DNA of 64,000 nt from the sequence record PZ452595.1. One strand, 5' to 3'. Position numbers and translations under genes: made by a program. Of the stretch, positions 45,210-64,000 are shown one piece after another. The DNA comes from a phage. The notes beneath the pieces were generated by a model. It was not told the DNA's origin. It saw only the letters and a list, made by a program, of their open reading frames with translations, and searched no databases. How positions within the stretch are numbered: position 1 is the stretch's first letter; each line of letters begins with the position of its first letter.

Positions 45210-45253
45210 AGTTATCTCTCACTTGTTAAAAAGATTTTATACTCCACGGGACC

Positions 45254-45282: not shown

Positions 45283-45285
45283 CTA

Positions 45286-45828: not shown

Positions 45829-45830
45829 AA

Positions 45831-46343: not shown

Positions 46344-46370
46344 TTTATTATCCTCAGTAGCTATGGTGTT

Positions 46371-46399
46371 ATAATACCACAACTGACCGAGGAAGTAAA
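46371..46399 (-). promoter_or_regulatory. T4-type early promoter
   Basis: Minus sense GTTTACT, 17-nt spacer, TGG-TATTAT. Confidence 0.55.
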
Positions 46400-46406
46400 C
46401 AACTTT

Positions 46407-47347: not shown

Positions 47348-47585
47348 AAAGATAGCTAATTTCGCCTAAAACATAATCATTAATTGTAACAGTTTTCACT
47401 TCACCACAAAAGAATTCTAACGCAATTAAATCTCGTTCAATTTCTTCTAATTGAAGCATCAACTTACTAGATTCAATTTTTACAGTTTCACGATTTTTAC
47501 CATGAGCAATTTCATAAATTTCGCTAACTTTATCCTGAAGAAGATAAAACTGATCTTTAGTTATTTCCACGAATAGCTTCCTCAA
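47325..47585 (-). CDS. hypothetical protein, paralog of the preceding ORF; start uncertain
   Basis: Track start is TTG; a GTG at 47570 preceded by GAGGAAG is the more likely start; shares MR-L…QF…LEEI…DY pattern with 47090..47347. Confidence 0.4.
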   Translation of the reverse strand: MRKLFVEITKDQFYLLQDKVSEIYEIAHGKNRETVKIESSKLMLQLEEIERDLIALEFFCGEVKTVTINDYVLGEISYLYEAIIND

Positions 47586-47817
47586 ATTTAATTAGTAATT
47601 TACAGACACTTTCATCTAGTGTAATTACCGTATCTGTATTACTGTGATATGATTGTTTTTCAATTCGTTTAATTGCTAATATAGTATCACTTATAAGATA
47701 AAGCTTATGAAGGAGCTCAGCTCCTGTTACCATAACATTAAGATTATCTTGCTTATTAGTATGCTTCCTTATACCATCTATTAGACGATTTAAATATTTT
47801 GAATTGATGTTAATCAT
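47557..47817 (-). CDS. hypothetical protein
   Basis: 86 aa, ATG start; same size class as the two preceding ORFs. Confidence 0.5.
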   Translation of the reverse strand: MININSKYLNRLIDGIRKHTNKQDNLNVMVTGAELLHKLYLISDTILAIKRIEKQSYHSNTDTVITLDESVCKLLIKFEEAIRGNN

Positions 47818-47823
47818 ATATCC

Positions 47824-49143
47824 TCACACATAAAACACATCATAACGACCACGAGTGACACCTACATAAAGAAGTTGCTGAGCTAATTCAGCATCTGCAT
47901 AATGAATACAAGGCGTATAGATGAAAGCACGGTCTACAGACATACCCTGTGCTTTATGGAATGTTGATGCAGGAAGTGCTTTCACTTTACTAAACTGTGA
48001 TTTAGCATCCCAAAAATCACTCCATGGAGCTTTTCCGCCTTTGTTCCAATTTTTATAAGTTTCTGCTGTTTTACCTAAAAATAGGTTAAACTTATACAAT
48101 TCTTCATCAGATGAAATTATTTTAATCTTTTCACGATAATATTCATCATCGCCGTAAGTTTCTACTGTTAAATCCCAATGACGAATTAAGTATTCTCCTG
48201 GAACACCACGAGCTTTAACAAACGTTGATGTATACTCTGCTTCTATAATACGAACTAACTGTCCGTTATTAAAAATAATTTCTGACACAGGCTTTCCATC
48301 AATTTTATATGTTTTAATTAATGGTTCCTGCATTACAATAATTTCACCGACAATAAAATCTTTATCGGTTTCAAAAATCTTTTTACGAATAATGCTATTT
48401 AACTTGTCAACAGATTTATTCGTAAATGCCATTACGCGATTTTCAAACAAATCATCTAGTGATTTTACGATTGAAAAATAATTTACCATAAAATCACGTA
48501 AAGCAGTATCACCAGTAAATCCACGTACTCCATGCCCGTCAACAACTTTGTCATAAATCCACTTACCGTTGCGAACGTCAGTAGCTACATCAATAATAGG
48601 AGCATTACTGCGTTTAACTTCAGTAAGTTCACACTGATAAAAATCTTTATGTGTAAAGAATGGACTGATATAAGCACTGTTTTCTCCTGGGTCAACAGGT
48701 CTAATTTGCTTATTATCGCCTATTCCAATTATAGTACACCAAGGTGGAATAGTTGAAAGCAGAATTTTAAACAGCTTTCTATCATACATTGACACTTCGT
48801 CACAGATTAATACTCTGCATTTAGCTAAATCTGGTACTTCCTTCTGCTCAAAGAGGACATTTTCTTCATATGTTACCGGGTTAATTTTAAGAATACTATG
48901 AATAGTACTTGCTTCTTTCCCTGATAGTTTTGAAAGAATCTTTTTAGCTGCATGAGTAGGAGCTGCTAAAATAATACCAGTTTCACCCGTAGATATTAAA
49001 GCTTCAATGATGAATTTGGTAAGAGTAGTCTTACCGGTGCCAGCAGGTCCATTAATAGTTACATGATGTTTCTTTTCTTTAATAGCCTTCATAACAATGT
49101 TAAAGGCATTTTTCTGGCCTTCGGTCAAATCATCAAATGTCAT
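47824..49143 (-). CDS. dda: Dda DNA helicase (SF1B)
   Basis: 439 aa; Walker A GPAGTGKTT, DE box LICDEVSM; same length as T4 Dda. Confidence 0.95.
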   Translation of the reverse strand: MTFDDLTEGQKNAFNIVMKAIKEKKHHVTINGPAGTGKTTLTKFIIEALISTGETGIILAAPTHAAKKILSKLSGKEASTIHSILKINPVTYEENVLFEQKEVPDLAKCRVLICDEVSMYDRKLFKILLSTIPPWCTIIGIGDNKQIRPVDPGENSAYISPFFTHKDFYQCELTEVKRSNAPIIDVATDVRNGKWIYDKVVDGHGVRGFTGDTALRDFMVNYFSIVKSLDDLFENRVMAFTNKSVDKLNSIIRKKIFETDKDFIVGEIIVMQEPLIKTYKIDGKPVSEIIFNNGQLVRIIEAEYTSTFVKARGVPGEYLIRHWDLTVETYGDDEYYREKIKIISSDEELYKFNLFLGKTAETYKNWNKGGKAPWSDFWDAKSQFSKVKALPASTFHKAQGMSVDRAFIYTPCIHYADAELAQQLLYVGVTRGRYDVFYV

Positions 49144-49451
49144 CGTAAATTCCCTGCAATTGGTATACTAACAATACGCCCAGTATCTAAAATTCGCTGA
49201 TATAATCTTTGTGTGTCTACGTCAGGCTTAACATGTTTAACTTCTATTTTATTAAACCAAAACTTACGTGGAGTCTCAACTAATCTTGGAATTCCCTTAC
49301 CTAAAGCTAGTCGATACTGTTCTTTAAGAGTAGTAAATACTTTATCAGCAATCTTCCATTCAAAAAATACAGCAGGACGATGTTCATCAAGCGGAACTGG
49401 CGCCGTAAATCCGTCTTTGTCTCGGTAAACTATCGCATATACATAAACCAT
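49140..49451 (-). CDS. hypothetical protein (dda.1 position)
   Basis: 103 aa, ATG start, stop overlaps dda start. Confidence 0.55.
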   Translation of the reverse strand: MVYVYAIVYRDKDGFTAPVPLDEHRPAVFFEWKIADKVFTTLKEQYRLALGKGIPRLVETPRKFWFNKIEVKHVKPDVDTQRLYQRILDTGRIVSIPIAGNLR

Positions 49452-49452
49452 A

Positions 49453-50199
49453 TTATCCTCGGATAAGTTTAAAAATTGAACAATTTAGCGGATATCCTCT
49501 TTTCAGTTTAAGTTTATCAATAAAAGACAAATTTTGATACCGCTCTACACCTTGAATAATTTTATCACACATATCATATTGCATTTCTGCTTCTGACAAC
49601 TTTTTCACAATTTTCCAATCCGAGCCTTTAAGAAGAACGTTCAATTTAACAACTTCAGCGCCTTCTGCTATGCGAGAACCATCAATACGAGCTTTAAGTG
49701 CTATAATTCTTAGCTTAATGTCAGAGGTCTGTTTTGATTTAGAAAGCTGAGAAATGTGTTCAATTCGGTTTTCACGTTTTTTCTGTATAGCTTTAATTTG
49801 ATTATAAGTCTTTTTGATTTTAGCCCATTTCTTTTCATCTAAATTTAGTTTATGAACTTTTTTCGCAGATGAACGACCAATTCGCAAAGCAAATAAATCA
49901 CGCTTTTCAATTAACTCTTCTAAAGTATAATCAGAACGAAATGTATTATACTTTTTCTTTACTGCAATAACATTCCCTTTAATGTATCCAACGTTATTAT
50001 CAAAACGTTCTAATGATAATTTCTCTCCTTCAATACGATTATCAAAAGGTTCTCCCGAGTAAGCGCAAACTTTTTGATCTAAAATGTTCTTAATGTAATT
50101 GAAGTCTAAGTTAAAATCTTTAGAACGTCTTTTTGCAGATGCCTGAGTATGCTCTAAACGACGTTTAATTTTACGAATTTGGTTATTAGACAGCTTCAT
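49453..50199 (-). CDS. srd: Srd, sigma-factor-like regulator
   Basis: 248 aa, ATG start; basic protein; position between dda.1 and modA. Confidence 0.65.
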   Translation of the reverse strand: MKLSNNQIRKIKRRLEHTQASAKRRSKDFNLDFNYIKNILDQKVCAYSGEPFDNRIEGEKLSLERFDNNVGYIKGNVIAVKKKYNTFRSDYTLEELIEKRDLFALRIGRSSAKKVHKLNLDEKKWAKIKKTYNQIKAIQKKRENRIEHISQLSKSKQTSDIKLRIIALKARIDGSRIAEGAEVVKLNVLLKGSDWKIVKKLSEAEMQYDMCDKIIQGVERYQNLSFIDKLKLKRGYPLNCSIFKLIRG

Positions 50200-50235
50200 A
50201 TTTTTCTCACATCTTACGGACGGTTAACTACTTAT

Positions 50236-50264
50236 ACTATAACATTTTTACTTTAACTTGTAAA
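50236..50264 (-). promoter_or_regulatory. T4-type early promoter upstream of srd
   Basis: Minus sense GTTTACA, 17-nt spacer, TGt-TATAGT. Confidence 0.55.
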
Positions 50265-50322
50265 CAACTTTATGTAAAAATGCTTTAAAACTTTCATGGT
50301 ATAATGAATCTAAGTCCTTCCA

Positions 50323-50925
50323 TTATAGATTAAATCCTTCAAATTCAAGAGTATAGATAGTGTATGTTGAATACTTTTTGTACTCATATCTATCTGCAAT
50401 TCTAAATACACTTCCAGCTGGTATCATTACTTCTTGTTCATCTGAAACTAATTCCATATTACGATAACGATGGCTATCCGGAAACTTAAAGTTTGGATTG
50501 TATTCTTTACAGCGTAGAGCTTTTATAGCATACTCCTGGAAATTGAATACCATAGGAGCTTTGAATTCAAAAATAACTTGTGTGTTATACTCTAAACCAG
50601 AAGCAAAATGTAGAGCTATATTTTTATCATATGAAGCTGATACTACTTTATCAAATGTAATAATATCAATTCCTTGATTTAACACCTGCTTAGTCTCAGC
50701 TGGAACACCTCTCCAAAGAGGTTTATCGTTTGGAACCAAACGAGATTTGATTATTTCATTTAACCAAGAATGATCGTCTGGTTTATTAGTAATACAATGA
50801 ATTAAAAGTTCAATTTCAGATAAATTAAACCCTTCAGAAAGTAATTCTTCACGAATAGAAGCACGCACCGATGCATCCATTGATTTTATTTTAAAATCTT
50901 TTAGTTGCATTACTGAGTATTTCAT
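50323..50925 (-). CDS. modA: ADP-ribosyltransferase ModA
   Basis: 200 aa, ATG start; paralogous to the adjacent 207-aa ORF; same lengths and order as T4 modA/modB. Confidence 0.8.
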   Translation of the reverse strand: MKYSVMQLKDFKIKSMDASVRASIREELLSEGFNLSEIELLIHCITNKPDDHSWLNEIIKSRLVPNDKPLWRGVPAETKQVLNQGIDIITFDKVVSASYDKNIALHFASGLEYNTQVIFEFKAPMVFNFQEYAIKALRCKEYNPNFKFPDSHRYRNMELVSDEQEVMIPAGSVFRIADRYEYKKYSTYTIYTLEFEGFNL

Positions 50926-51545
50926 TCAACTACCTCAATATCATAAACTTTAAATGTTCCAAATGAATCGTGTAATTTTTCTTTTGAAATAGAAGTTATT
51001 CTATACTTTCCAATTGGAATCATCCATTCTTGTTCACGCACAATCATCATTAAGTTATCAGTACGCTCTGAATCTAGCCCATCAGTATCTTCATACGTGT
51101 ACTTAAACTCAGTATTAGGAGAAGAAAGTATAATATCGCTGATATGGTCAGAATAATTAAAAGCTTTATTAGTTTTTAAGCGAAGTATTATTTTAGTAAA
51201 ATATTCAGCGTAAGAAAAAGAACATGCTGTGAGCAAACTAGTAGTAAATGAATCTACTCTATTCGTTGAAAACACTTCTCCAACTTGTAAATCTTTAATA
51301 AGTTCTTCTGTTGATTTTGATATACCACGATATAACTGATAAGGTGATTTAGTTAAATGCTTTTTAATGATTTTATTCAACTGCCGATGAAGAGCTTCAT
51401 TCTTTTTGGCTTCCATACGTTGCCAAAGAACTGACTGCTCAAAGTCAGTAAATTTTTCACAGACCTTTTTATACATATCATATTGAAAATCGACGCTTTC
51501 AGCTTTTATAGATAACTGTTCAACATCTGCAAGATTAATAATCAT
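50922..51545 (-). CDS. modB: ADP-ribosyltransferase ModB
   Basis: 207 aa, ATG start; stop overlaps modA start. Confidence 0.8.
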   Translation of the reverse strand: MIINLADVEQLSIKAESVDFQYDMYKKVCEKFTDFEQSVLWQRMEAKKNEALHRQLNKIIKKHLTKSPYQLYRGISKSTEELIKDLQVGEVFSTNRVDSFTTSLLTACSFSYAEYFTKIILRLKTNKAFNYSDHISDIILSSPNTEFKYTYEDTDGLDSERTDNLMMIVREQEWMIPIGKYRITSISKEKLHDSFGTFKVYDIEVVE

Positions 51546-51571
51546 GATAGCCTCCGTATACTTCAGAAGCT

Positions 51572-51600
51572 ATCATATCATCGTTAGAAAGGAAAGTAAA
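51572..51600 (-). promoter_or_regulatory. T4-type early promoter upstream of modB
   Basis: Minus sense GTTTACT, 17-nt spacer, TGa-TATGAT. Confidence 0.55.
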
Positions 51601-51612
51601 CAACTTTTTGAA

Positions 51613-51795
51613 TTATTTTGCCCAGGGAGCCCAGGGCGGAGGGTCAAGATGGTATGAAGCTAGTTCTTCTAGAAGAGCATCTGGGGCTTCAATTCCATAA
51701 TTCTGTAATACTATACGGTACTCTTTCTTATAATCACTGGAATCATTCTGGTTATTCGTAGAATGATTATCTTCTAACATCTCAAATAAATCCAT
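51613..51795 (-). CDS. hypothetical acidic protein
   Basis: 60 aa, ATG start. Confidence 0.45.
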   Translation of the reverse strand: MDLFEMLEDNHSTNNQNDSSDYKKEYRIVLQNYGIEAPDALLEELASYHLDPPPWAPWAK

Positions 51796-51803
51796 ATTAA
51801 TTC

Positions 51804-52274
51804 CTAGCGATAAAAACCAAATTGACGATTAGCTTCAATAATCTTTCTTTCTTCTTCGGACATTCTCCAGCGTAGTCCAACGTCAAAATGAGCCCAGACC
51901 ATCTTAACAAATGCATTTATATCTTTAATATCTTCAATAATGAATGTTTTACTTTTAAAAGGCTGACTCGCTAATTTAACTTTATCATCTTCAAACAGGT
52001 CAAAAAGACCATATTCATGAGCTCTTTTATAGCCTTTAATAGTTAAAGCTTCAGAAGAAGAAAACGGTGAATCAGTATTCTGCAAAATATCTTCAGTATG
52101 CTTTATAATTAGAATAATATTTTCTGGATATTTTCTTTCTTTTATATCTTTAATTAAAAAATCCGGATTTTCTGCTAAAGGAATAATTAATGAGCATTTT
52201 TTATCAAGTGTATTTACTGATTTACCTTCTTTAGACATAAATTCTATTGAATAATGTTTTGCTACTTCAATCAT
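51804..52274 (-). CDS. hypothetical protein
   Basis: 156 aa, ATG start. Confidence 0.55.
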
Positions 52275-52427
52275 GGGATTTCCTTTTGCCTACTAATGGA
52301 CCATCGGGAATTTTGTTTTCCTGGATATATTTCTCATTTTCTTCCATCATTTTACTACCAATTTTAAGAAGCAAATCCAGTGCTTCATTTGCTTTAGCTT
52401 TAGCCTCTTCCAGCGTCATATCTTTGT

Positions 52428-52631
52428 TCACGATTTATCCCCATAGATGTCTCTCATCAATTTAAGCGCTGAGCGTTCTAATTTCTTTTCTTTCTCAGCA
52501 CTAATCATTGATTTCATCCATTCTTCTGATTCGTTCTGCATTTCTTTATTTGCTTGTTCAACCCAACCATCATCAATGTACATTGAGTTTGGTCTATTGA
52601 ACCATTCAAGAATCTTCTTGAGAGCTTTCAT
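52428..52631 (-). CDS. hypothetical protein
   Basis: 67 aa, ATG start. Confidence 0.45.
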
Positions 52632-53091
52632 TTATTTTACCTAAAACAATAGTAGGAGCATCGTCAAATTTATGAATTTTGAGTAAATTTGGATTTAAAT
52701 TATTCCATAAAGAGGTAATAAAATATGATAGCGCATTTTCTTCTGTAATTATAAATTTATTTCCCTTATCTATTTTCCAGTCATATATTGAATCATATGA
52801 ATAGAAGGACAATGGTTTATTATTATAATATGCTTCACTAACATCAATATAGTTAGATTTAGTAAATGCTTGAATTGCCATAAATGGAGAATTTTGTACA
52901 GTTTCAATAATTCCGATCTTTTTAAGTTTTATTTCAACATCTTCTGGAATTGGCATTGAAATAAAATCTTCTACTAGATACATATTATTGTCATATCTTT
53001 TATCAATCATTACTGCTACGGTAATTGGAACATCCTTGACAAACGCCATACTAATACTATTGATAGACATTTCAAACAAAATTGCTTCCAT
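52606..53091 (-). CDS. hypothetical protein (mrh/srh region)
   Basis: ATG at 53091 preceded by GAGGA (161 aa); track start is TTG. Confidence 0.5.
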
Positions 53092-53099
53092 AATTTTCC

Positions 53100-53441
53100 T
53101 CAATCGCAAGATGTAGATGAACAACTAGAATCACAAGAACTTCCACATGAATCGCCCGTCCATACATGAACAGGAACATTAGTATCATATGAATCAGAAC
53201 TAGACTGTGTTTTCTGTGTGTTAGATGATGTAGTAGGTACTGACCAGCGCCAAGGATTTTTATAATATTCTTGGGCTTCTTCATAAGTCATAGTAACTGC
53301 TTCTACTGTTCCATCTCCCATATAAACATATTCAACTACAGTTAAAGGAAGGTAGTCATTTGAAATAGGAACTACACCTTCCCCAGGAGTCGTAGAGAAA
53401 AAATCCGTAAAGAAACTTTTAAACCAGTTAAAGATAAACAT
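53100..53441 (-). CDS. hypothetical protein with Cys/Ser-rich C-terminal tail
   Basis: 113 aa; C-terminus [18 protein letters not shown] (C-x3-C-x3-C-x4-C). Confidence 0.5.
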
Positions 53442-53647
53442 TACAAAAAGCCTCTCTTGAATTCGACTTGCTTTTCGCCATAATCATATCGAATCTCTGC
53501 ATTAAATTCGACAGAACCATCTGCGTACATCATAAATGAATGCACAACAACTTCTGTAGACCATGGTTGTAGTTCATATTTCTTCATTACATGCCGTGAA
53601 ATGATAATATCTAAATCTTCATTTGGTTTAATCCAGCGATTTAACAT
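53441..53647 (-). CDS. hypothetical protein
   Basis: 68 aa, ATG start. Confidence 0.45.
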   Translation of the reverse strand: MLNRWIKPNEDLDIIISRHVMKKYELQPWSTEVVVHSFMMYADGSVEFNAEIRYDYGEKQVEFKRGFL

Positions 53648-53712
53648 AGTACTCTCCTCTATAAGATAATTCTATTATACCATACTCATTTTGGAAAGTA
53701 AACCGTTTAAAT

Positions 53713-53739
53713 GAAAAAAAGGACTCCCGAAGGAGTCCT
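53713..53739 (-). terminator. rho-independent terminator after soc
   Basis: AGGACUCC-UUCG-GGAGUCCU followed by UUUUUUU in minus sense; identical to the element at 361..383. Confidence 0.65.
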
Positions 53740-53744
53740 TGAAT

Positions 53745-53990
53745 TTATTCACCAGTTACTTTCCACAAATCTTCATTTGCAGCAATCCATTCAGTACGTT
53801 GATTTTCTTCATATACTGTAGAATATGCTGCTTTTTCTGAAGGGAATGTCTGGTAATGAGCACCAGAAATTTTGTGAACGTCAGAGTAAAGAGGGAAAGC
53901 TACGGAAATTTCCTTTCCTTCAATTTTCTTATTTCCATCTAATTTCTGCTCAAATGTTTTAATATTAACATAACCGCGAGTACTAGCCAT
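53745..53990 (-). CDS. soc: small outer capsid protein Soc
   Basis: 81 aa, MASTRGYVNIKTFEQKLDGNKKIEG...; late promoter TATAAATA upstream. Confidence 0.9.
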   Translation of the reverse strand: MASTRGYVNIKTFEQKLDGNKKIEGKEISVAFPLYSDVHKISGAHYQTFPSEKAAYSTVYEENQRTEWIAANEDLWKVTGE

Positions 53991-54020
53991 GTAATTCTCC
54001 TTTTATTTAAATTACATGAT

Positions 54021-54028
54021 TATTTATA
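54021..54028 (-). promoter_or_regulatory. late promoter for soc
   Basis: Minus sense TATAAATA about 30 nt upstream of the soc ATG. Confidence 0.55.
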
Positions 54029-54073
54029 ATAAATTCTCGCGGCTTTTAAGTCGTCGTTTAAATAAACGAGCTA

Positions 54074-54592
54074 TTAATAGCCTCGATCTTGACGTGCGAA
54101 ATTTTCGGCATTTTTCAGATAATAAAGTTTAAAGATTTCCTCAGCTGACATTCCAAGAGCAATAAATTTATTCATAAAAAAGTGAAATTGGTCAATCAGT
54201 TCAAATTTAATTTCAAGCTGATCTTCAGGAGATAAGTCTTGAATTTTCTTGGATTGCATTTCAGAATAACGTTTCTTCCAAGGTTTCCATACGGCAGAAG
54301 CTTCTTTTTCACCATTACTCATACCACCAAGAGAAGTATATAGCTCGCGAGTTTCATCTGCGATATAATCGTCTTGGTTTCGCAGCCAAGCAAGAACTTC
54401 TCCTGCGGTTTCAAGTGAATCAGGATGACGATTTGTTTCTGGCTTATCATTAGCCAAACGAATCTGTAAAGACCGCTGCATATCAAGCATAACCTGCAAT
54501 GGGTCTTTTTCATCACCGAGAATATCCCAGTATTCATTTTGAGCTTTATCAACACCTTCGATCAAATGAGCGCATTCATTAAAGTGAGCCAT
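54074..54592 (-). CDS. 56: dCTP pyrophosphatase gp56
   Basis: ATG at 54592 gives MAHFNECAHLIEGVDKAQNEYWDILGDE... (172 aa, MazG-like); the track frame has a hydrophobic N-terminal extension. Confidence 0.88.
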   Translation of the reverse strand: MAHFNECAHLIEGVDKAQNEYWDILGDEKDPLQVMLDMQRSLQIRLANDKPETNRHPDSLETAGEVLAWLRNQDDYIADETRELYTSLGGMSNGEKEASAVWKPWKKRYSEMQSKKIQDLSPEDQLEIKFELIDQFHFFMNKFIALGMSAEEIFKLYYLKNAENFARQDRGY

Positions 54593-54626
54593 TATTTTTC
54601 CTTTCAATTCATGGGTTAGTAGATTA

Positions 54627-54650
54627 ATTATACAATAAATATATAAAGCA
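54627..54650 (-). promoter_or_regulatory. MotA-dependent middle promoter for gene 56
   Basis: Minus sense tTGCTTtA (MotA box), 11-nt spacer, TATAAT. Confidence 0.55.
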
Positions 54651-54663
54651 ATAAGGAGGACAT

Positions 54664-54864
54664 ATGGTACAAAAATTAATGGCACTTGTTGATGCCATAA
54701 AAGGTAATAAGAAACGTATAGCTTTTACTATTTCTGCTATGGTAGGAATTTTACTCTGGAACTTTATTCTATCACCTGTTGCGATTGCACATGGTATTAA
54801 TATTCCAGTAGTTACTCTTGATACATTCGTAGATTTAGCATTTGCTTTAGTTGGGTTAATTTAA
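54664..54864 (+). CDS. small two-helix membrane protein, divergent from gene 56
   Basis: 66 aa plus-strand ORF (MVQKLMALVDAIKGNKKRIAFTISAMVGILLWNFIL...); AAGGAGGA 5 nt upstream of ATG; stop overlaps the gene 61 stop convergently. Confidence 0.4.
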   Translation: MVQKLMALVDAIKGNKKRIAFTISAMVGILLWNFILSPVAIAHGINIPVVTLDTFVDLAFALVGLI

Positions 54865-55889
54865 ATCTTGGCATATTTAGATAGCCGCATTTTAGCCATC
54901 AACCCCTGGGCAATATTATTTTTCATATATTCCATAATTTGTTCAGTGGTTGCACCTTCCTTTCTAATCATATCATTAACATCTTTTGATTTCCAGGGAG
55001 ATTTATCCCAAAACATAACCCTTTCTCCTGCATCAACTAATTTAGTCATTCGCTTAATAGTGTCAGGATGACGAGGTTCATTATCTAAAACCCACACACG
55101 TCTATCTTTAAATGGAACAACTTCTAGGTCTAATTGACCACCCGTAATAGCTATACCATTTTCAATAAAAAGTGAATCTATAGGTCCTTCTAGAACATAT
55201 ACATCACCATCTTTAACTCGTTCTACTCCATAGATTTTTGTTGCCTCAGGATAAGCTTTGATGGTGATATATTTTTGAGGAGCATCTTTCTTTAATGCAC
55301 GTCCTTGAAAAGACTCAGCTTTTCCATTAGCATTATAAATTGGAATAACAAGACGAGGCTCAGAAATTTCCTTTTTATATGTTCCCGGTGCTATACTATT
55401 AACTAATTTAGGCCATTCGGTTGTAAACCAAAGATATTTCCATTTATCCTTTGGAATACAACGAGCTTTTACGTATTTTATAATTGGATGGTCTTCCGCC
55501 AGTTTATCTAATCTAACACATGACGGAAGAGATTTAATTATTTTCTTTTCAGGTTGTTTAGGAAGTTCTTTAAGTTTTTCTACTGGACGGCTTTTACCTT
55601 TTTCTTTTCTTATTTCAAAGATATACTCACGATATAAATCAGGTTCAAACTCCTTTAAATATATTCCGATTGGTGCATGATAGTTACAGTTATAACAATG
55701 AATATTTCCTTCATTATTATCACCATAATACCATCCACGAGCTTTATTTTGGTCGGTTTTTGAATCTCCACAAACAGGGCATCTAAACCGTAATTTAAAA
55801 GTTGAACTATTATTTACTTGTGTGAATTTAGGTAAATGGGCTAATGCACGGTATGCAAACTCATTATCAATCCAAGGTATTGATGACAT
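54861..55889 (-). CDS. 61: DNA primase gp61
   Basis: 342 aa; N-terminal zinc ribbon CPVCGDSK…CYNC and Toprim region; same length as T4 gp61. Confidence 0.95.
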   Translation of the reverse strand: MSSIPWIDNEFAYRALAHLPKFTQVNNSSTFKLRFRCPVCGDSKTDQNKARGWYYGDNNEGNIHCYNCNYHAPIGIYLKEFEPDLYREYIFEIRKEKGKSRPVEKLKELPKQPEKKIIKSLPSCVRLDKLAEDHPIIKYVKARCIPKDKWKYLWFTTEWPKLVNSIAPGTYKKEISEPRLVIPIYNANGKAESFQGRALKKDAPQKYITIKAYPEATKIYGVERVKDGDVYVLEGPIDSLFIENGIAITGGQLDLEVVPFKDRRVWVLDNEPRHPDTIKRMTKLVDAGERVMFWDKSPWKSKDVNDMIRKEGATTEQIMEYMKNNIAQGLMAKMRLSKYAKI

Positions 55890-55891
55890 TT

Positions 55892-56056
55892 TTACTCTTC
55901 TTTTTCTTTAGATTCCTCTTTTTTCTTTTTAGGAATCTGTTCAGGACCTTTATTTACTACAGCGCCTGATGTTGTTCCAGTAGAGATATTTTCAGGATTA
56001 CCACCTGAATCTCCAGCGACCATATCTTCTTTGATAAATTCTTTATATGTTTTCAT
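55892..56056 (-). CDS. small hypothetical protein (61.1 position), not in ORF track
   Basis: 54 aa hand-translated (MKTYKEFIKEDMVAGDSGGNPENISTG...); stop 3 nt before the gene 61 ATG. Confidence 0.4.
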   Translation of the reverse strand: MKTYKEFIKEDMVAGDSGGNPENISTGTTSGAVVNKGPEQIPKKKKEESKEKEE

Positions 56057-56057
56057 A

Positions 56058-56684
56058 TTAACCTCTATTCATAAAAGCATTAAAAATTTGGTCATCAATA
56101 GAAACATTTACTTTAGACTGTTTTTCAGATGGCAATTCATATCCACATATTACAATTTTATGATCAATATCAAAATACACAGAAGCAATATGATTAATGA
56201 TATTTTCAGTGAAGTCTAAATCAACATCAATGTCTTTTTGACCAAAGCCCAAAGGATAAATAATGCGAGTAATTCGATTATCTTTAACAAAGATTCCACC
56301 GACATACTCTGTGCTGCGTTTAAAGTCTACACGCCGACGAAATGAAAAATATTCAGGCTCTTTATGAGCTCGGCTCATAGGGCACAACGAATAACTAGAA
56401 TAAGAGATGTCAAATCCTACGCCTTCAATATGAACTAAATTGTCATGATTAAACCAATTATAATCGTATGCCAAGTCCATTAGATTGTCATATGTGAAAG
56501 GCACCGGATTAACATCATTGGTCACAAGCATATAATTAGCAACTGCTATAATTTCATTATTTTTAACGAATACAAACCGTGATTGATGCGAATGGCCTGG
56601 ACCTGCGTTTTCACGATTAATGATATAACACTGGGCACCTTTATATGTGTACGTGTCTTTACACTTGTGCATTTGATAAAGCAT
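56058..56684 (-). CDS. hypothetical protein (61.2 position)
   Basis: 208 aa, ATG start, overlaps the sp stop. Confidence 0.6.
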   Translation of the reverse strand: MLYQMHKCKDTYTYKGAQCYIINRENAGPGHSHQSRFVFVKNNEIIAVANYMLVTNDVNPVPFTYDNLMDLAYDYNWFNHDNLVHIEGVGFDISYSSYSLCPMSRAHKEPEYFSFRRRVDFKRSTEYVGGIFVKDNRITRIIYPLGFGQKDIDVDLDFTENIINHIASVYFDIDHKIVICGYELPSEKQSKVNVSIDDQIFNAFMNRG

Positions 56685-56977
56685 TATTCACCTACCACTT
56701 CAGCGATGATATTTTTATTATTAAAGTTTTTATCACAATACAGAACATAATTATACTGCATTACACCACCAGACTTAAGCTGTTTTTGCACTTCAGCTTT
56801 CATTTCAGGGCGATCGCGCTCAACGATATTCATAATATCTGCTTCAATTTGAGTTTCAACCTCAGTCTGATCTGCCGTCATAGACCATTCGCACAAATCT
56901 TTATCATAACCTGCCATAGCAGGCTGAGCAGCACAAGAAGCTAAAGCAAAAATTGTAGCAAAGATAAATTTTTTCAT
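56684..56977 (-). CDS. sp: Spackle periplasmic superinfection-exclusion protein
   Basis: 97 aa with cleavable signal peptide MKKFIFATIFALASCAAQPAMA; GAGGAG upstream; position (61.3) between 41 and 61. Confidence 0.7.
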   Translation of the reverse strand: MKKFIFATIFALASCAAQPAMAGYDKDLCEWSMTADQTEVETQIEADIMNIVERDRPEMKAEVQKQLKSGGVMQYNYVLYCDKNFNNKNIIAEVVGE

Positions 56978-57037
56978 GATAATCTCCTCAGTAGTTTATG
57001 TTTATATAGTATCTCAATTTCCAACAAAAGTAAACAG

Positions 57038-57295
57038 TTATTTTAAAATTTCTGCGTAATCACATGTTACAAACTGTTTCTCTAGCTTAACGATCTTACG
57101 AAAATACCTTTTACACTGACGAATCTGTCGCTTCGTAGGACGTACAGCAAACTTAATAAATTCCACTCGACCAAATGGAGGACTTTCTTCTGCTGGAATA
57201 TCTAACACCAATTCCCACGTATCTGCAATAAGTGCTTTAAATTGTGTATTTTTCCTGACGTTATACGGAGTAGGTTTAAATAAAACAATATGCAT
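57038..57295 (-). CDS. hypothetical basic protein (61.4 position)
   Basis: ATG at 57295 preceded by GAGGA, 2 nt after the dmd stop (85 aa); longer track frame would overlap dmd by 38 nt. Confidence 0.5.
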   Translation of the reverse strand: MHIVLFKPTPYNVRKNTQFKALIADTWELVLDIPAEESPPFGRVEFIKFAVRPTKRQIRQCKRYFRKIVKLEKQFVTCDYAEILK

Positions 57296-57296
57296 A

Positions 57297-57479
57297 TTAT
57301 CCTCGGCAATCCACTTCACATACTTTCTTGTCATCAATGAAAGCTTTAACTAATGCTTTATTAACTTCAGCATACTGAGTAGTAGCCCATTGAACGTCAT
57401 CTTTCATCATTGTGGTTTCTTTAGTAAACATGCTTTCATTCTTAAACCACCCCATAAAAACTACCTTTACCAATTCCAT
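57297..57479 (-). CDS. dmd: Dmd, inhibitor of host RnlA/LsoA toxins
   Basis: 60 aa, MELVKVVFMGWFKNESMFTKE...; length and position just downstream of gene 41 match T4 dmd (61.5). Confidence 0.82.
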   Translation of the reverse strand: MELVKVVFMGWFKNESMFTKETTMMKDDVQWATTQYAEVNKALVKAFIDDKKVCEVDCRG

Positions 57480-57508
57480 AACAATCTCCTCATTTAACCA
57501 ACAAGACT

Positions 57509-57537
57509 ACTATACCATAGTCTCGTCAGCTTGTAAA
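57509..57537 (-). promoter_or_regulatory. T4-type early promoter upstream of dmd
   Basis: Minus sense GTTTACA, 17-nt spacer, TGG-TATAGT. Confidence 0.55.
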
Positions 57538-58965
57538 CTAAAATTTTAATTCATTCGCCAAAGCATCTAACTGAGCTCGAGTGGATTCATTTCTTTGATA
57601 GCGATTCTGCTCAGCCTGAATCTGTTGTGAACCTGCTACTTCGTTCACTTCAGTTGGAGTAGAATCTTGTTCAATTTCTACCCATTTCTGATTTCCCTTT
57701 TGAACACCCATCAAAAACTTATTCCACTTATTCTTATCACCATATCGTGATTTGATTTGCTTAATGAGTTGTTGTTCAGCAGCTGCTAGCTCCTCGGTTT
57801 CAATGACCGCAAGCATAAAATCAGCTGTCGCTGGAAGACCAGCAGATTCTGCGATATCACTCATGTTAACATCAGAAGAATCCCAAGCTTGTTTGCCGAC
57901 CTGCGCTGCAGTCCAAAGAACAGTTTCGGTTTCAACAGCCAAAGCACGCAATTCCTCTGCAATAGCTTTAACAGTTGTGTAACTATTTTCTGAATAAACT
58001 CTAATACGGCAAGATTTACAAATACCAAGATAGTCGACAATAATGATTGTTGGAACAAAATTCTTCTTGAGCTTCAATTCGTTTAAAAGTGATCGAAATG
58101 TATTAGCATCTGCTCCACCAGTAGGATACTGTTTAACGATTAAACGCCCGAGAGTAGATTTCTCGCGCCATTTTTCCATTTTTCCTTTATACTCAGCGTA
58201 AGAAATATGCCCATCATCAATATCATCAAGAGAAACATCAAGCATATTAGCATCAATACGCTTAGCACAGACTTCTTCTGCCATTTCCATGGAAATGTAA
58301 AGAACGTTATGACCAAGCTGCAAATAATCTGCTGCCAATGAACACAATCCTAATGACTTACCAACGTTAACGCCAGCCATTAAAACGTTCAGTGTTCCAG
58401 TCTCAGCTCCGCCTTTAGTAATTTTGTTTAGAATTCTGAGTTTAAATGGAACCTTACGAGCTTTATTCATATAAGATAGCCAACGTGCTTCGTAGTCATC
58501 CATCCAGTCATGACCAACGTAGCTATCAAATGAAATTGATAATGCTTGCCGCATAATGTCAGGAATAGCACCAACATCCGGCATTTTCTTATTTCGTTTT
58601 TCCGGAGGAAGCTCAGCATTAGTTTGAATTTCGATTATTTTAGATGTAGCATTAAACATCGCCCTTTGCTGAACATATTTTTCTGTTTCTTTTACTAACC
58701 AGCTGTGGTCTTCCGGAGAATCAGCCAGTTTTGAAATAAGTGTTTTTACACCAGAATATTCTGTTTCAGTAAATGAACTATTTTCTAATGCAACATTTAA
58801 CGCATTAATAGATGGAACGCTATGATACTCATTGACATGAGATTTAATTAATTTGAATGTATTTTTAGCTGGACCACTTTCAAAATATTCTGAATCCATA
58901 TATGGCCAAACTTTTGAAAAATAAGCTTGATCAAATATGAGATGAGAAAGAATAATTTCTACCAC
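57538..58965 (-). CDS. 41: replicative DNA helicase gp41 (DnaB family)
   Basis: 475 aa; Walker A GVNVGKS; start codon is GTG preceded by AAGGAG with no nearby in-frame ATG; same length as T4 gp41. Confidence 0.94.
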   Translation of the reverse strand: MVEIILSHLIFDQAYFSKVWPYMDSEYFESGPAKNTFKLIKSHVNEYHSVPSINALNVALENSSFTETEYSGVKTLISKLADSPEDHSWLVKETEKYVQQRAMFNATSKIIEIQTNAELPPEKRNKKMPDVGAIPDIMRQALSISFDSYVGHDWMDDYEARWLSYMNKARKVPFKLRILNKITKGGAETGTLNVLMAGVNVGKSLGLCSLAADYLQLGHNVLYISMEMAEEVCAKRIDANMLDVSLDDIDDGHISYAEYKGKMEKWREKSTLGRLIVKQYPTGGADANTFRSLLNELKLKKNFVPTIIIVDYLGICKSCRIRVYSENSYTTVKAIAEELRALAVETETVLWTAAQVGKQAWDSSDVNMSDIAESAGLPATADFMLAVIETEELAAAEQQLIKQIKSRYGDKNKWNKFLMGVQKGNQKWVEIEQDSTPTEVNEVAGSQQIQAEQNRYQRNESTRAQLDALANELKF

Positions 58966-58974
58966 ACTTACTCC

Positions 58975-59319
58975 TTAAAAGAATTTAAATTTTTTCTTTG
59001 ACCTTTTATTAAATGCATCTTGTAGTTGCATTGTAATACATTTTTCTACATGAGGAGCTAACTCAGCTTTTCTTTCTTGGTCAAGAACAGCAAAGTCCAT
59101 TACAACCTTTCCATCAACCCAATCCAGTTTAGTTACATACACTATATGTGTAGAACCATCTTCTAGTTTAATGACAATCTCCTGGATAACATTTTCCATA
59201 GCAGATTTAATTATCTTAAGAGACTCATTAAAAAGACGTTCTTTTCTTTCTTCTTCCCCCTCCGAAGAGGGGGATTCATCGATAATTTCTAGATCTAAAT
59301 CTAAATCATCTTTATTCAT
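58975..59319 (-). CDS. 40: gp40 head vertex assembly chaperone
   Basis: ATG at 59319 (114 aa, MNKDDLDLDLEIID...); track frame adds 6 codons from a GTG. Confidence 0.7.
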   Translation of the reverse strand: MNKDDLDLDLEIIDESPSSEGEEERKERLFNESLKIIKSAMENVIQEIVIKLEDGSTHIVYVTKLDWVDGKVVMDFAVLDQERKAELAPHVEKCITMQLQDAFNKRSKKKFKFF

Positions 59320-60493
59320 TAAATTCTTCCATATCACTTAACTGATCTAGATCAGTTTCTAAATCAGCTGCTGATTTACTTTTACTTTCTGGAGATTTAA
59401 ATTTTTCAACCTTTGAGTTAATCAATTCATCAACTTCAGCTTCAACAATTTCATTACTATCAATAGCACCTAACTGATAAGCACGTTTAATAGCATCTCG
59501 GAATGGTTGATGCTTAAATAAAGGACCCCAGAATGTAGTGCAGTTGGTATCTTTTGCACGCCAAGATTTTTCTTCGCGAATCATCTCGCCGGTTTCTTCG
59601 TCAAGAAATTCACGAGCATACCAACCGTTCTTAGGTTTTACCACGAATCCTAATTCTAGAGCCATATCTAACAATCCAGAATAAGGATCGATACCACCGT
59701 CAAATTTAACATCAATAAAGAATTTACTTTTTTCTTTAACGGTACGAGATTTTTCTACATTTAGAACAAATTGATACCCCTGAAGATCAGAACCATCTTT
59801 AATCTGGCGTTTACCGATAATGAATACAGTATCAGCCGAATACATTACGCCTGTACCACCTGTCATCACGGTTTTACTAAACATTTCAATTGTTTCAATT
59901 GTATGGTTAACCGCAACACATGGAATATTTTTAATGCTAAAATAAGGAGTAACAATACGGAATAATGACTTCAGTGATTTAGCACGAGTCATATCTGCCA
60001 CAGATTTTTCATTCAAGGCATCTTCCGTTTCTTTCTTAGAAGCCATATTACCGATTGAGTCGATGAATACAATAACCTTTTCACCACGCTCAATAGCTTC
60101 AAGCTGATTCACCATATCAATTTTCAGCTGTTCAACTGACTGAATTGGCGTATGAATTACTCGTTCCGGGTCAACTCCCATGGAACGTAAATAAGCTGGA
60201 GTAATACCAAATTCGCTATCATAGAATAGACAAACCGCGTCAGGATATTTGTTCAAATATGCCGCAACCATAGTCAAAGACATATTTGATTTAAAGTGTT
60301 TAGAAGGCCCTGCGAAAATAGTTAAACCAGACTGCATACCACCATCAATCGCACCAGAAATAGCGATATTAAGCATTGGGATTTTTGTACGGATTACATC
60401 CTTTTCATTAAAGAATTTAGATGTAGTCAGTTCAGCAGTCATTTTAGAAGTGGAAGCTTTAATCAAACGGGATTTTAAATCTGCAATAGACAT
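59312..60493 (-). CDS. uvsX: UvsX recombinase (RecA-like)
   Basis: 393 aa; Walker A GPSKHFKS; acidic C-terminal tail; length and position match T4 UvsX. Confidence 0.94.
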   Translation of the reverse strand: MSIADLKSRLIKASTSKMTAELTTSKFFNEKDVIRTKIPMLNIAISGAIDGGMQSGLTIFAGPSKHFKSNMSLTMVAAYLNKYPDAVCLFYDSEFGITPAYLRSMGVDPERVIHTPIQSVEQLKIDMVNQLEAIERGEKVIVFIDSIGNMASKKETEDALNEKSVADMTRAKSLKSLFRIVTPYFSIKNIPCVAVNHTIETIEMFSKTVMTGGTGVMYSADTVFIIGKRQIKDGSDLQGYQFVLNVEKSRTVKEKSKFFIDVKFDGGIDPYSGLLDMALELGFVVKPKNGWYAREFLDEETGEMIREEKSWRAKDTNCTTFWGPLFKHQPFRDAIKRAYQLGAIDSNEIVEAEVDELINSKVEKFKSPESKSKSAADLETDLDQLSDMEEFNE

Positions 60494-60570
60494 TCATTTT
60501 TTCCATAGGCATCATTATATTTTCCTCACTGGTTAAAGATAGAGTAATTATAACACAATAAATTTAGGCA

Positions 60571-61413
60571 TTAATCAACTGCTATTGGATGAATAGCATT
60601 AAACTTATGAAATGCTTCTGATTTTTCTTTACGCGAAACACACATGCGAAGAACCTTTAATGGCTCATCTTCTTCACCCAACGATTTTCGTTTTTCAATA
60701 TTAGAAGTTTTCCAACGAGCTTGTTCTGGAAACTCTCTATTGATTTGCTCAAGCGCTCTATTATGTTTAGAATTACTACGAATTGAACTGCACCCGCCAG
60801 GAGCTTGTGCTTTTCCAGATACAACCAGATATTTGAACAAGGCCAAATGCGGATAACCTTGATTAATTAAATTGAGAAATGCATACATATCTTCGCATAA
60901 ATCAATTTTTCCATACCCAATTTGTTCTGTCGTAAGTTTTCCGAGGTCATACCATGTATTCGTGAATCCATATGAATTTTCACGATAATTACCCCAAGAT
61001 GAAGTAATTTTAAAAATAGGTAGACGAGCATGGCCATGATAATACCCGCAATCCATGGCATCTTCAACGTATTGAATCAATTCATAGAACTGTTCACGAG
61101 TTAATTGATTAACTTTATCTACGCAGCGACGATCATCTCTCTTTCGCATTGAACTCATACGAATAGTAGTATCATCGTCAATCATCCAGATTCGTTGACC
61201 TGCATACATATCAGTAATAGCTTTACGAGTACCGGCAATTCCATTTACATCATCAGGAATAGTTATAATTTTAGCTCTAGACCCATAGGCATCACAATAA
61301 GCTTTTTCTTCGTGTTCACGCACTACAATATGCGGTTCATAATCAGTCGGAAACATATCAAGGGCAGAAACTGCCCCAACACGCTGATAACTTGGAATTA
61401 CGAATTGAATCAT
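60571..61413 (-). CDS. HMC-DNA glycosyltransferase, GT-A type (candidate beta-alpha-glucosyltransferase)
   Basis: ATG at 61413 overlapping the gene 42 stop (ATGA), 280 aa; DxD motif in WMIDDDTT; sits at the uvsX-42 locus but is shorter than T4 beta-gt. Confidence 0.65.
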   Translation of the reverse strand: MIQFVIPSYQRVGAVSALDMFPTDYEPHIVVREHEEKAYCDAYGSRAKIITIPDDVNGIAGTRKAITDMYAGQRIWMIDDDTTIRMSSMRKRDDRRCVDKVNQLTREQFYELIQYVEDAMDCGYYHGHARLPIFKITSSWGNYRENSYGFTNTWYDLGKLTTEQIGYGKIDLCEDMYAFLNLINQGYPHLALFKYLVVSGKAQAPGGCSSIRSNSKHNRALEQINREFPEQARWKTSNIEKRKSLGEEDEPLKVLRMCVSRKEKSEAFHKFNAIHPIAVD

Positions 61414-62150
61414 TTCCACTCACCTTTATAGTCTTTTTTCACAATATGAGTTTCGCCAGTATTCCACCAATGATCAACCAAGTAAAAATGACGAGAATAT
61501 ACATGAAGACTTCCAACATTCCATATAATAGAACCTGCTTTATACTGACGAGTTGAATCGCCTGCATTCAAATCAGATACTAATTTATCTAATACGTATT
61601 TTTGCCATGCATAATCATTACGGAATCCGAAGACTACGTCATTTGAGCGCATGTTAACAACTGCATTGATTTTCTTGTCACGAATCAGGTATTGTACTGT
61701 ATTCGTACACATGAAATCTGACATACCATCTTTATTGTAGTCAAATTGCATAGATGGACGAGTATAAATCATGATACCACGTCGAGAATCAGGATTTTGA
61801 CCAAGTTCAGCTAAACACATATCATACTGAGCATAATTATCTTCTGACCAAATAGCCCAACCATAATTCGAGTTAATTTCACCTTTAGAAGATGCTACTT
61901 GTTGCCAAATCTTCGGTGTTTCACCCGGAATATCTTTAACGAACAAGCTCTTAGATTTATACCATTCAAGTTCACGCTGGATGTATTCATCATTAAGAGC
62001 GCCAAAAATAAACGGTTCATCTGCTACAAATGATGCGCCAATAATTTCAATAGTTTTAACGCCAGTTTTATCAACTACGAAATCTTTTTCTTTTAATGCA
62101 AGCCCCAAATGAAGACGGATTTCTTCAACTGTCATAGAGTCACTAATCAT
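61410..62150 (-). CDS. 42: dCMP hydroxymethylase gp42
   Basis: 246 aa, ATG start; thymidylate-synthase-like fold signature; same length as T4 gp42. Confidence 0.94.
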   Translation of the reverse strand: MISDSMTVEEIRLHLGLALKEKDFVVDKTGVKTIEIIGASFVADEPFIFGALNDEYIQRELEWYKSKSLFVKDIPGETPKIWQQVASSKGEINSNYGWAIWSEDNYAQYDMCLAELGQNPDSRRGIMIYTRPSMQFDYNKDGMSDFMCTNTVQYLIRDKKINAVVNMRSNDVVFGFRNDYAWQKYVLDKLVSDLNAGDSTRQYKAGSIIWNVGSLHVYSRHFYLVDHWWNTGETHIVKKDYKGEWK

Positions 62151-62303
62151 TTAAACCTCAATTGATACATTCATATTTAACTTGTAACAGTAATAAACTC
62201 CAACCTAAAATAATAGTTGGAATCATAAGAGGAACCGTTACACTATAGTATATACTTATTATAACCATCAAGATTAAAAGCAACACTGCTATAATTTTGC
62301 TTT

Positions 62304-62555
62304 TCATTCCTTCTCTCTGATGATAATTACTTGATTTGGCTGTGCAGACTTTTTAGTTTCACCCGCAATTGACCAAATAAATGTAATAAACCAACCAATA
62401 ATTGACCAGTTAAACAGCAAAGATGTGAAAAAGATTCCTACTGTCGATTTTGACCCACGCATCAAGGCGATGAACCATGGAAGCATGTATATAATAATAG
62501 CCAACACGCCTGAAACTAAAACCATAAAAATTGAACCTGTTACTAAAGTTTCCAT
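62304..62555 (-). CDS. imm: Imm superinfection immunity membrane protein
   Basis: 83 aa, METLVTGSIFMVLVSGVLAIIIYMLPWFIALMRG...; two TM helices; same length as T4 Imm. Confidence 0.88.
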   Translation of the reverse strand: METLVTGSIFMVLVSGVLAIIIYMLPWFIALMRGSKSTVGIFFTSLLFNWSIIGWFITFIWSIAGETKKSAQPNQVIIIREKE

Positions 62556-62562
62556 CTTTTCC

Positions 62563-62943
62563 TCACTTAGTCAAATTTTTTACGCATGAATTATAAGAAT
62601 TCACTACATACTCCATCGGAGCATTTTTACCAGTACGCCATTGGTAATTATTAGCCCAATTAGCCCAAATTTCGGCGCAGTAGTTTTCAATTTTTTCTTC
62701 GCGTGTAATTACATCCGAATTACGATATGCTTGAGCAGATTCATCTGGGCGAATAGCTTCGTCAAAATTCGCCTGCATTTGTTCTACTGTCTGTTTTGGA
62801 GCTTCTTTATAACACTTGACATTAGGATTATAAAATTTGCTTGAACAGTTTACAATTTTTCCTACATCAGACTGATTTACTACCGGTCCTTGAGCTACAC
62901 AACCAGTAAGACCTAATGCAATAACCAAAATAGCGATTTTCAT
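62563..62943 (-). CDS. putative lipoprotein
   Basis: 126 aa; signal peptide with lipobox LTGC (MKIAILVIALGLTGCVAQ). Confidence 0.55.
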   Translation of the reverse strand: MKIAILVIALGLTGCVAQGPVVNQSDVGKIVNCSSKFYNPNVKCYKEAPKQTVEQMQANFDEAIRPDESAQAYRNSDVITREEKIENYCAEIWANWANNYQWRTGKNAPMEYVVNSYNSCVKNLTK

Positions 62944-62955
62944 AATAATTTCCTC

Positions 62956-63207
62956 TTAAAACTTAACAAATAACTTTAAAGCATCTTCAGTTTTAATTCC
63001 TTTTCTTACACCCATAACAGAAATTGGCTGTGACTGAAATTTTCCTTTACCATTATAAATTTCTAATCCAGTCACCATTCCATTTTGTTCTATAATACCG
63101 TAAGTGTTACCTTCATTTTCAAATTCTTTAACTTTAAAGAGTTTATTAGCTTTTTCTGCATTAACAACTTTTAAATTTTGAATAAAATTAGTTTGAATAT
63201 TTTTCAT
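62956..63207 (-). CDS. hypothetical protein
   Basis: 83 aa, ATG preceded by GGAGG; early promoter 63236..63264 upstream. Confidence 0.5.
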   Translation of the reverse strand: MKNIQTNFIQNLKVVNAEKANKLFKVKEFENEGNTYGIIEQNGMVTGLEIYNGKGKFQSQPISVMGVRKGIKTEDALKLFVKF

Positions 63208-63235
63208 TTTGTGTTCCTCCGTAGTTGATAGTTGT

Positions 63236-63264
63236 ATAGTACCACAGAGGAACAGTCTTGTAAA
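63236..63264 (-). promoter_or_regulatory. T4-type early promoter
   Basis: Minus sense GTTTACA, 17-nt spacer, TGG-TACTAT; leader matches the one at 36397..36425. Confidence 0.55.
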
Positions 63265-63348
63265 CAGTTTTGTGAAAAAATTTTTAGGGAATTCTAAAGG
63301 TCCAGAATCATCTGTTTTTCATAAGTATAGATTTATATTACTTGTATG

Positions 63349-63370
63349 AAAAAGGGACCCGGAGGTCCCT
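63349..63370 (-). terminator. rho-independent terminator after gene 43
   Basis: GGGACC-UCCG-GGUCCC followed by UUUUUC in minus sense, directly after the gp43 stop. Confidence 0.6.
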
Positions 63371-63382
63371 AGATTTATTCTA

Positions 63383-64000
63383 TCAGCCAAACAGGAAGTC
63401 TAACGAAGCTTTTTCTTCATAGTCCATACCAGCCGATTCACACATACCCGCAAGCGGTTTAACAAACGATTTTTGGAACAAAGTTGAGTAGTCAATCCAA
63501 GACAGTACATCAGAACGAATTTCTTTTGGAAGTTCTGTGCCCGACGGCCAAGCAATGCACTTGTCACCAAATGGATTTCCTTCACGCAATGGAAGAACCA
63601 TTACCTTATTTCCATCCAAAATTGGAGCTACACCCAGACCACTAACAGCTCGACGATAAGTTAGCACACCACGAATATGGAACGGGCATTTAAATCCTGG
63701 CCAACCTTTATCATCATATTTCGCTATATCGTTCGCAGTTTTTACTTCAGCAATAACTTTATAGTCAAGTTGACGATATTCTTTCTCGAAGTTCTTGTAA
63801 TATTCTTGGACAGACTCTTCGCCTTCCTGAAGAATACGACGAATACTTTCTTCGAGAGCTTCTTGCACTGCTTTTGGTGTTGAGCTCTGCTGAGTTTCCA
63901 TACCCATGATTTTTAGATGTGGTTCAGCAAATCGCTTATCTTCCATATCATAAACGTTCAGAGCATAACGCTTTTTCGCTTTCCAAAATCCACCGACGCC
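63383..64000 (-). CDS. 43: DNA polymerase gp43, C-terminal part (5' end beyond window)
   Basis: Minus-strand frame open to the window end, ending ...ASLDFLFG (clamp-interaction tail); downstream of imm and 42 as in T4. Confidence 0.92.
   Translation of the reverse strand, partial: GVGGFWKAKKRYALNVYDMEDKRFAEPHLKIMGMETQQSSTPKAVQEALEESIRRILQEGEESVQEYYKNFEKEYRQLDYKVIAEVKTANDIAKYDDKGWPGFKCPFHIRGVLTYRRAVSGLGVAPILDGNKVMVLPLREGNPFGDKCIAWPSGTELPKEIRSDVLSWIDYSTLFQKSFVKPLAGMCESAGMDYEEKASLDFLFG

Follow-up and report, generated by a model that had tools for sequence, protein, structure and literature searches.

A probable T2/T6-type beta-alpha-glucosyltransferase gene between gene 42 and uvsX of a T4-like phage

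In phage T4, the slot downstream of gene 42 is occupied by beta-gt, which encodes a glucosyltransferase of 351 aa (NP_049658; PF09198 at 325 bits). The family of this enzyme is listed as GT63 or GT72 and has a GT-B fold (PMC13216743). The beta-alpha-glucosyltransferase (ba-gt) of T2 is 280 aa in length (PMC6024577), and the T6 enzyme, a TET-associated glycosyltransferase (TAGT), has been described as a GT-A protein from a group that is sister to GT2, in contrast to the GT-B folds of T4 alpha-GT and beta-GT (PMC13216743). According to the authors of another study, the position of TAGT is syntenic with that of T4 beta-GT (PMC13390438). The T4 and T2/T6-type enzymes share the slot downstream of gene 42, UDP-glucose as donor, a beta linkage in the product and phage DNA that contains 5-hydroxymethylcytosine (hmC), but they differ in their acceptor, which is bare hmC for T4 beta-gt and the glucose of alpha-glucosyl-hmC for the T2/T6 type. 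The combination of alpha-GT and beta-GT was found in only six of 753 GT-encoding phage genomes, and the vast majority of genomes with either enzyme pair it with a TAGT (PMC13216743). Likewise, a-gt is accompanied by ba-gt in 12 sequenced RB phages, the T4-like state being confined to RB55 and RB59 (PMC6024577). The presence of ba-gt at this locus is the majority state of Tequatrovirus, with T4 as the exception.

The gene under study lies in a 64,000-nucleotide stretch of phage DNA, here termed the window, to which all coordinates refer unless stated otherwise. An intact minus-strand ORF of 843 nt (280 codons plus stop) extends over 60571..61413, with ATG at 61413..61411 and TAA at 60573..60571. 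A longer version from a GTG at 61419 (282 aa), given in the program-made ORF list, was rejected as all homologues begin MIQF. The 280-aa start is taken to be right because the homologues and the annotated genes of T2, Solly and Bas42 all start MIQFVIPSY. A Shine-Dalgarno-like AAGGTGAG precedes the ATG, which overlaps the TGA of gene 42 as ATGA (61413..61410), an overlap shared with T2, Solly and Bas42. The upstream neighbour, gene 42 (61410..62150, minus strand), encodes dCMP hydroxymethylase, the source of the hmC precursor; this protein belongs to the thymidylate-synthase family and is 98% identical to the Bas42 protein. The downstream neighbour is the uvsX recombinase gene (59312..60493, minus strand; PF21134 and RecA). 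Between ORF and uvsX lies a 77-nt spacer (60494..60570, minus strand) that includes TGTTATAAT and is identical in every column in the window, T2 and T6. No segA homing endonuclease gene was found between ORF and uvsX in the window; in T4, by contrast, segA is inserted before uvsX, and a 23-nt gap follows gene 42. The order gene 42, ba-gt, uvsX is the same in T2, T6, Solly, BGP and Bas42. The earlier note had placed a 280-aa ORF with an IDDDTT motif between uvsX and gene 42, and ORF, motif (residues 78–83) and both neighbours were confirmed.

Comparison of the ORF with its counterparts in T2, T6, Solly, BGP and Bas42 revealed 11–26 synonymous and only 1–8 non-synonymous codon differences. Judged by its sequence, the ORF is a genuine gene under selection rather than a fortuitous frame. 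Two plus-strand ORFs that overlap it (60644..60856 and 61195..61431) are taken to be shadows of this conserved minus-strand gene. A scan for sigma-70 promoters around ba-gt gave 11 sites compared to 9.8 ± 3.5 in shuffled sequence, i.e. no excess.

Over 280/280 aa, the encoded protein shares 98.9% identity with T2 ba-gt, which differs from it by three substitutions (R11H, C40Y and P251S). The enzymes of Solly, EH2 and Bas42 carry C40Y as their only difference, and across T2, Solly, EH2 and Bas42 the identity amounts to 98.9–99.6% with all motifs kept. The T6 sequence (MH550421) is likewise three substitutions away (C40N, D55G and R106H), its own stop codon (Q10*) aside. Length, start and locus are those of T2 ba-gt (UniProt Q06717, 280 aa) and T6 ba-gt/ggt (Q06718). 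The window copy differs from these in having C40 for Y (N in T6) and R11 for the H11 of T2, and it is free of the lesions of the deposited T6 genes (see below). Residues 1–275 match PHROG 842, “beta-glucosyl-HMC-alpha-glucosyltransferase”, at E 3e-88, and Pfam PF20691 (TAGT) is matched at 41.6 bits (gathering cutoff 27.5) over profile positions 2–205 of 205; NCBIfam holds no model for the protein. On the combined strength of the ORF, PF20691, PHROG 842 and the identity to T2, Solly, EH2 and Bas42, the CDS at 60571..61413 (minus strand) is annotated here as ba-gt/TAGT. It very probably encodes a T2/T6-type beta-alpha-glucosyltransferase (ggt, TAGT, PF20691) that adds a second glucose to give gentiobiosyl-hmC. 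The same type of enzyme had been suggested for this locus in the earlier note, and the T2 identity, the single-residue distance to Solly, EH2 and Bas42 and the PHROG match all support the suggestion.

At least 475 phage records contain the gene at full length and at least 90% nucleotide identity (megablast). Nearly all are Tequatrovirus of Escherichia, Shigella and Yersinia, and the named copies are annotated beta-glucosyl-HMC-alpha-glucosyltransferase; the same gene is thus present in Solly, EH2, Bas42 and some 470 other Tequatrovirus records. With tblastn, about 200 further records at 60–80% identity were retrieved from T4-like phages of Klebsiella, Enterobacter, Salmonella and Citrobacter, in which the gene also adjoins gene 42. 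On a wider scale, 322 clusters (50% identity) match the protein at E ≤ 0.001, and the matches in BFVD are named TAGT. The protein shares R11, DDD, D175, G186 and G206–G207 with the PF20691 TAGT family. Most members of that family, however, are only 20–35% identical to it, stand in other genomic contexts and have acceptors that are only putative, whereas the window protein belongs to the single TAGT subgroup with a known product. C40 (codon TGT, 61294..61296, minus strand) is the one residue at which it departs from its counterparts in Solly, EH2 and Bas42. This position is hypervariable, being Y in close relatives and N in T6, with K, R, E, A, V and N across the family. A look-up among 15 billion proteins found none identical to the window protein, Cys40 included, and the phage genomes closest to the window in public records (MLF4, AV122 and T6) reach only about 96.5% identity over 25 kb (window 39001..64000), with none closer. 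Therefore, the window represents a Tequatrovirus that matches no deposited isolate exactly.

The earlier note had stressed that the enzyme is shorter than T4 beta-gt. The difference in length is real (280 versus 351 aa), but the gene is no short beta-gt; it specifies an unrelated fold at the same locus. Of the two alignments the note had proposed, the one to T2 ba-gt returned the 98.9% given above, and BLASTP against T4 beta-gt returned a best E of 2.2 over 8 residues, i.e. no homology. A profile search with PF09198 gave no match to the protein, which also lacks the two-domain GT-B fold. Anywhere in the 64-kb window, neither PF09198 nor PF11440, the family of T4 alpha-gt, was detected, nor were homologues of T4 beta-gt or T4 alpha-gt. 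Reading the ORF as a truncated or diverged beta-gt was dismissed on account of the missing BLASTP homology, the different Pfam family and a GT-A instead of a GT-B fold.

T4 itself still carries a remnant of the 3′ end of ba-gt including the stop, with 24 of 25 nt identical (window 60593..60569, equivalent to T4 NC_000866 24262..24238). This 25-nt relic is located between beta-gt and the start of segA and was recovered at E 6e-7 in a comparison of 1.3 × 2.2 kb. On the other side, the homology between T4 and the window ends some 20 nt short of the gene 42 stop. Relic and breakpoint together suggest that a beta-gt cassette replaced an ancestral ba-gt in T4.

Like the identity of the gene, the fold and the conserved residues of its product were addressed directly in this analysis. 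A structure model based on 60 diverse homologues (pLDDT 95) replaced one based on 10 close homologues (pLDDT 70). The predicted fold is GT-A, with a single Rossmann-like alpha/beta/alpha domain resembling known GT-A enzymes; the fold prediction proposed in the earlier note has thus come out as a glycosyltransferase. The model reproduces the published conclusion on the TAGT fold (PMC13216743). Searching the PDB with the protein sequence gave no significant chain match (best E 1.5), and searching it with the 60-member family profile gave chance matches only, with no solved structure of the family among them. Compared to cellular GT2-like GT-A enzymes (for example AvpGT 9jma, BcsA 4p00, TarS 5tze and SpsA 1h7l), the sequence identity is only 8–15%. 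The window protein differs from these in having no membrane or accessory domain and in using a sugar on duplex DNA as acceptor.

Conservation was assessed over 60 family members with 19–77% identity to the window protein. Invariant in this set are R11, D80, D175, G186 and G207, and near-invariant are I6, P7, R63, D79, D81, G206, R212 and P229. The window protein has every one of these residues. The putative DxD-type motif for metal and nucleotide-sugar binding, I78-D79-D80-D81-T82-T83 (codons 61165..61182, minus strand), stands out by its conservation in the family: D79 and D81 are each present in 59 of the 60 members, and in the model D79–D81 directly follow the central strand 74–78, which is the canonical DxD position. 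The pair E174-D175 (codons 60889..60894, minus strand; “CEDxY” motif) starts helix 174–184 in the model and is a candidate for the catalytic base of an inverting, GT2-like enzyme. The third site is R11 in the N-terminal IPSYQR loop (codon CGT, 61381..61383, minus strand), which is R in 60/60 family members and His in T2.

By analogy with GT2 enzymes and with the model as a guide, tentative roles can be assigned to these residues. DDD (79–81) may hold the divalent metal and the diphosphate of the UDP-sugar, the IPSYQR loop may touch the nucleotide via R11, and D175 or E174 could act as base in an inverting, single-displacement transfer. An inverting mechanism would suit the passage from an alpha-linked donor to a beta-linked product. 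Within the pathway, the enzyme would act last. Gene 42 and gene 56 (54074..54592, minus strand; 93% identity over 172/172 aa by tblastn with Bas42 dCTPase), whose dCTPase/dCDPase excludes dCTP from phage DNA, would ensure replication with hmC. An alpha-glucosyltransferase would then place alpha-linked glucose on hmC, and the ba-gt product would move a second glucose from UDP-glucose onto this alpha-glucose in beta-1,6 linkage, giving gentiobiosyl-hmC. No a-gt homologue was found in the 64-kb window by tblastn with T4 and Bas42 a-gt. In T4 and Bas42, a-gt lies between genes 47 and 55, about 9–12 kb past gene 43, and gene 43 is cut by the window end. From synteny with these phages, the a-gt gene is expected about 9–12 kb beyond the 3′ end of the window.

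The gentiobiosyl product is attributed to the window enzyme from the literature on near-identical proteins, as is the effect on host defence discussed below. Two other activities have to be weighed against this attribution. In the first, the enzyme would act as primary glycosyltransferase on bare hmC, a functional stand-in for T4 beta-gt. The gene does fill the exact beta-gt slot, and distant TAGTs occur without alpha-GT or beta-GT in 288 of the 753 genomes, so that unmodified bases may be the acceptor for part of the family (PMC13216743). However, LC-MS of Solly, EH2 and five other Durham phages showed about one third hmC and two thirds alpha-gentiobiosyl-hmC; Solly and EH2 hold only hmC, alpha-glucosyl-hmC and alpha-gentiobiosyl-hmC, and no beta-glucosyl-hmC was detected in phages of the Durham collection (PMC13390438). 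Moreover, despite their ba-gt, T2, T6 and Solly-type phages leave roughly one quarter to one third of their hmC without modification (PMC13390438; bioRxiv 10.64898/2026.02.25.707755), and T6 Δba-gt is reported to have only alpha-glucosyl-hmC, presumed by the authors to cover about 75% of cytosines (PMC11078745). Transfer to bare hmC is accordingly held to be highly improbable. A slightly fainter prospect still is the transfer of some different sugar, such as the arabinose of RB69/Bas46-type phages, brought about by the C40 allele or by unseen context. The sugars on hmC do vary among T4-like phages (PMC6024577), and the exact sequence of the window protein is unique. Yet the difference is one residue at a hypervariable position, relative to enzymes of phages with measured gentiobiose (PMC13390438), and BlastP with T4 a-gt, T4 b-gt and T2 ba-gt identified no homologue in RB69, an arabinosylating phage (PMC6024577). 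Addition of a second glucose thus remains by far the preferred activity for the window enzyme.

Gentiobiosyl-hmC is reportedly much scarcer in T2 than in T6 (5% versus 72%, an observation from the 1960s). T2 ba-gt has His11 where 60/60 diverse family members have Arg, and R11 is found in the window, T6, Solly, EH2, Bas42, teqskov and Bas44. The H11 codon occupies positions 3031–3033 of the locus slice of T2 PV648363, the counterpart of window 61381..61383. All eight T2/SV76 records are identical over the ba-gt locus and encode H11; the nearest relatives of T2, teqskov and Bas44, have 99.5% nucleotide identity and R11. R11H is a simple candidate for the cause of the low value in T2. It is conceivable, albeit rather doubtful, that the extent of gentiobiosylation in T-even phages is set largely by the ba-gt allele, with R11H of T2 as a hypomorph explaining about 5% against about 72% in T6. 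If so, R11 and the one-residue distance from the Solly and EH2 enzymes would point to a T6-like, heavily di-glucosylated genome for the present phage, and we infer a high, T6/Solly-like level of gentiobiosylation. The gene would still be a known one, but its sequence would predict the modification level and the sensitivity to Brig1- and BapA-type defences. A second hint of enzyme alleles tuning the extent of di-glucosylation comes from BGP, whose DNA has an intermediate ratio of hmC : alpha-glucosyl-hmC : gentiobiosyl-hmC of 1 : 2 : 2 (PMC13390438). Compared with the enzyme of Solly and EH2, BGP ba-gt (OZ035849; 10788..11630 of the locus slice) carries seven substitutions, among them R95K and C97R at two sites that are conserved in close homologues.

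Modification of this kind matters because the range of host defences able to attack the phage depends on the second glucose. T6 DNA, with gentiobiosyl-hmC, resists Brig1 in vitro and T6 is less susceptible to Brig1 immunity, a protection due to the fact that this glycosylase excises alpha-glucosyl-hmC; T6 without ba-gt is more sensitive (PMC11078745). Similarly, gentiobiosyl-hmC blocks the removal of glucose by BapA, and deletion of ba-gt in T6 turns the DNA into a BapA substrate (bioRxiv 10.64898/2026.02.25.707755). GmrSD-type enzymes still recognise gentiobiosyl-hmC (PMC13216743). The proposal, also made from the sequence beforehand, that the gene alters sensitivity to modification-dependent defences is supported by these T6 Δba-gt experiments (PMC11078745; bioRxiv 10.64898/2026.02.25.707755). 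An intact, consensus-like ba-gt would therefore predict the host range of the phage against systems of this kind. Still, the window ba-gt is an already known gene in its usual place in T4-like coliphages, a correct but ordinary assignment. As the biology is established and hundreds of sequenced relatives have the gene, an annotation is added here rather than new knowledge.

Two deposited T6 genomes carry lesions in ba-gt. In T6 MH550421, a TAG is found at codon 10 (about 4951–4953 of the locus slice), and because of this amber codon the annotation restarts at M20 (261 aa). In T6 AP018814/NC_054907 (336–1175 of the locus slice), the in-frame loss of one Asp of DDD leaves DD and a protein of 279 aa; this shortened protein, YP_010067197.1, is the TAGT reference of PMC13216743. 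Both lesions could be stock mutations or sequencing errors.

A terminator-like, GC-rich hairpin with a T-rich tail falls within codons 13–17 of ba-gt (61361..61377, minus strand; 7-pair stem, 5 GC). It reads GGGCAG TTT CTGCCC followed by the T-rich tail, lies just after the gene 42 stop and is identical in T2 and T6. In its 91-nt context the folding energy is −27.5 kcal/mol (z −3.0). A “terminator” is also among the features listed under the ba-gt match in Yersinia phage fPS-65. The hairpin could attenuate read-through from gene 42. That the window gene is non-functional, decaying or silenced in the manner of the lesioned T6 copies, is scarcely credible: lesions do occur in laboratory stocks (T6 MH550421 and T6 NC_054907) and the hairpin lies within the coding region, but the frame is intact with all invariant residues kept, the Shine-Dalgarno-like element and the ATGA coupling to gene 42 are in place, synonymous changes dominate the divergence from relatives, and functional T2/T6-type copies keep the hairpin as well. 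Further upstream, between imm and gene 42, the window has a very hydrophobic 49-aa ORF (62158..62307, minus strand), which is annotated as hypothetical in T2, Solly, BGP and Bas42 and coincides with an unannotated gap in the T4 and T6 (MH550421) records.
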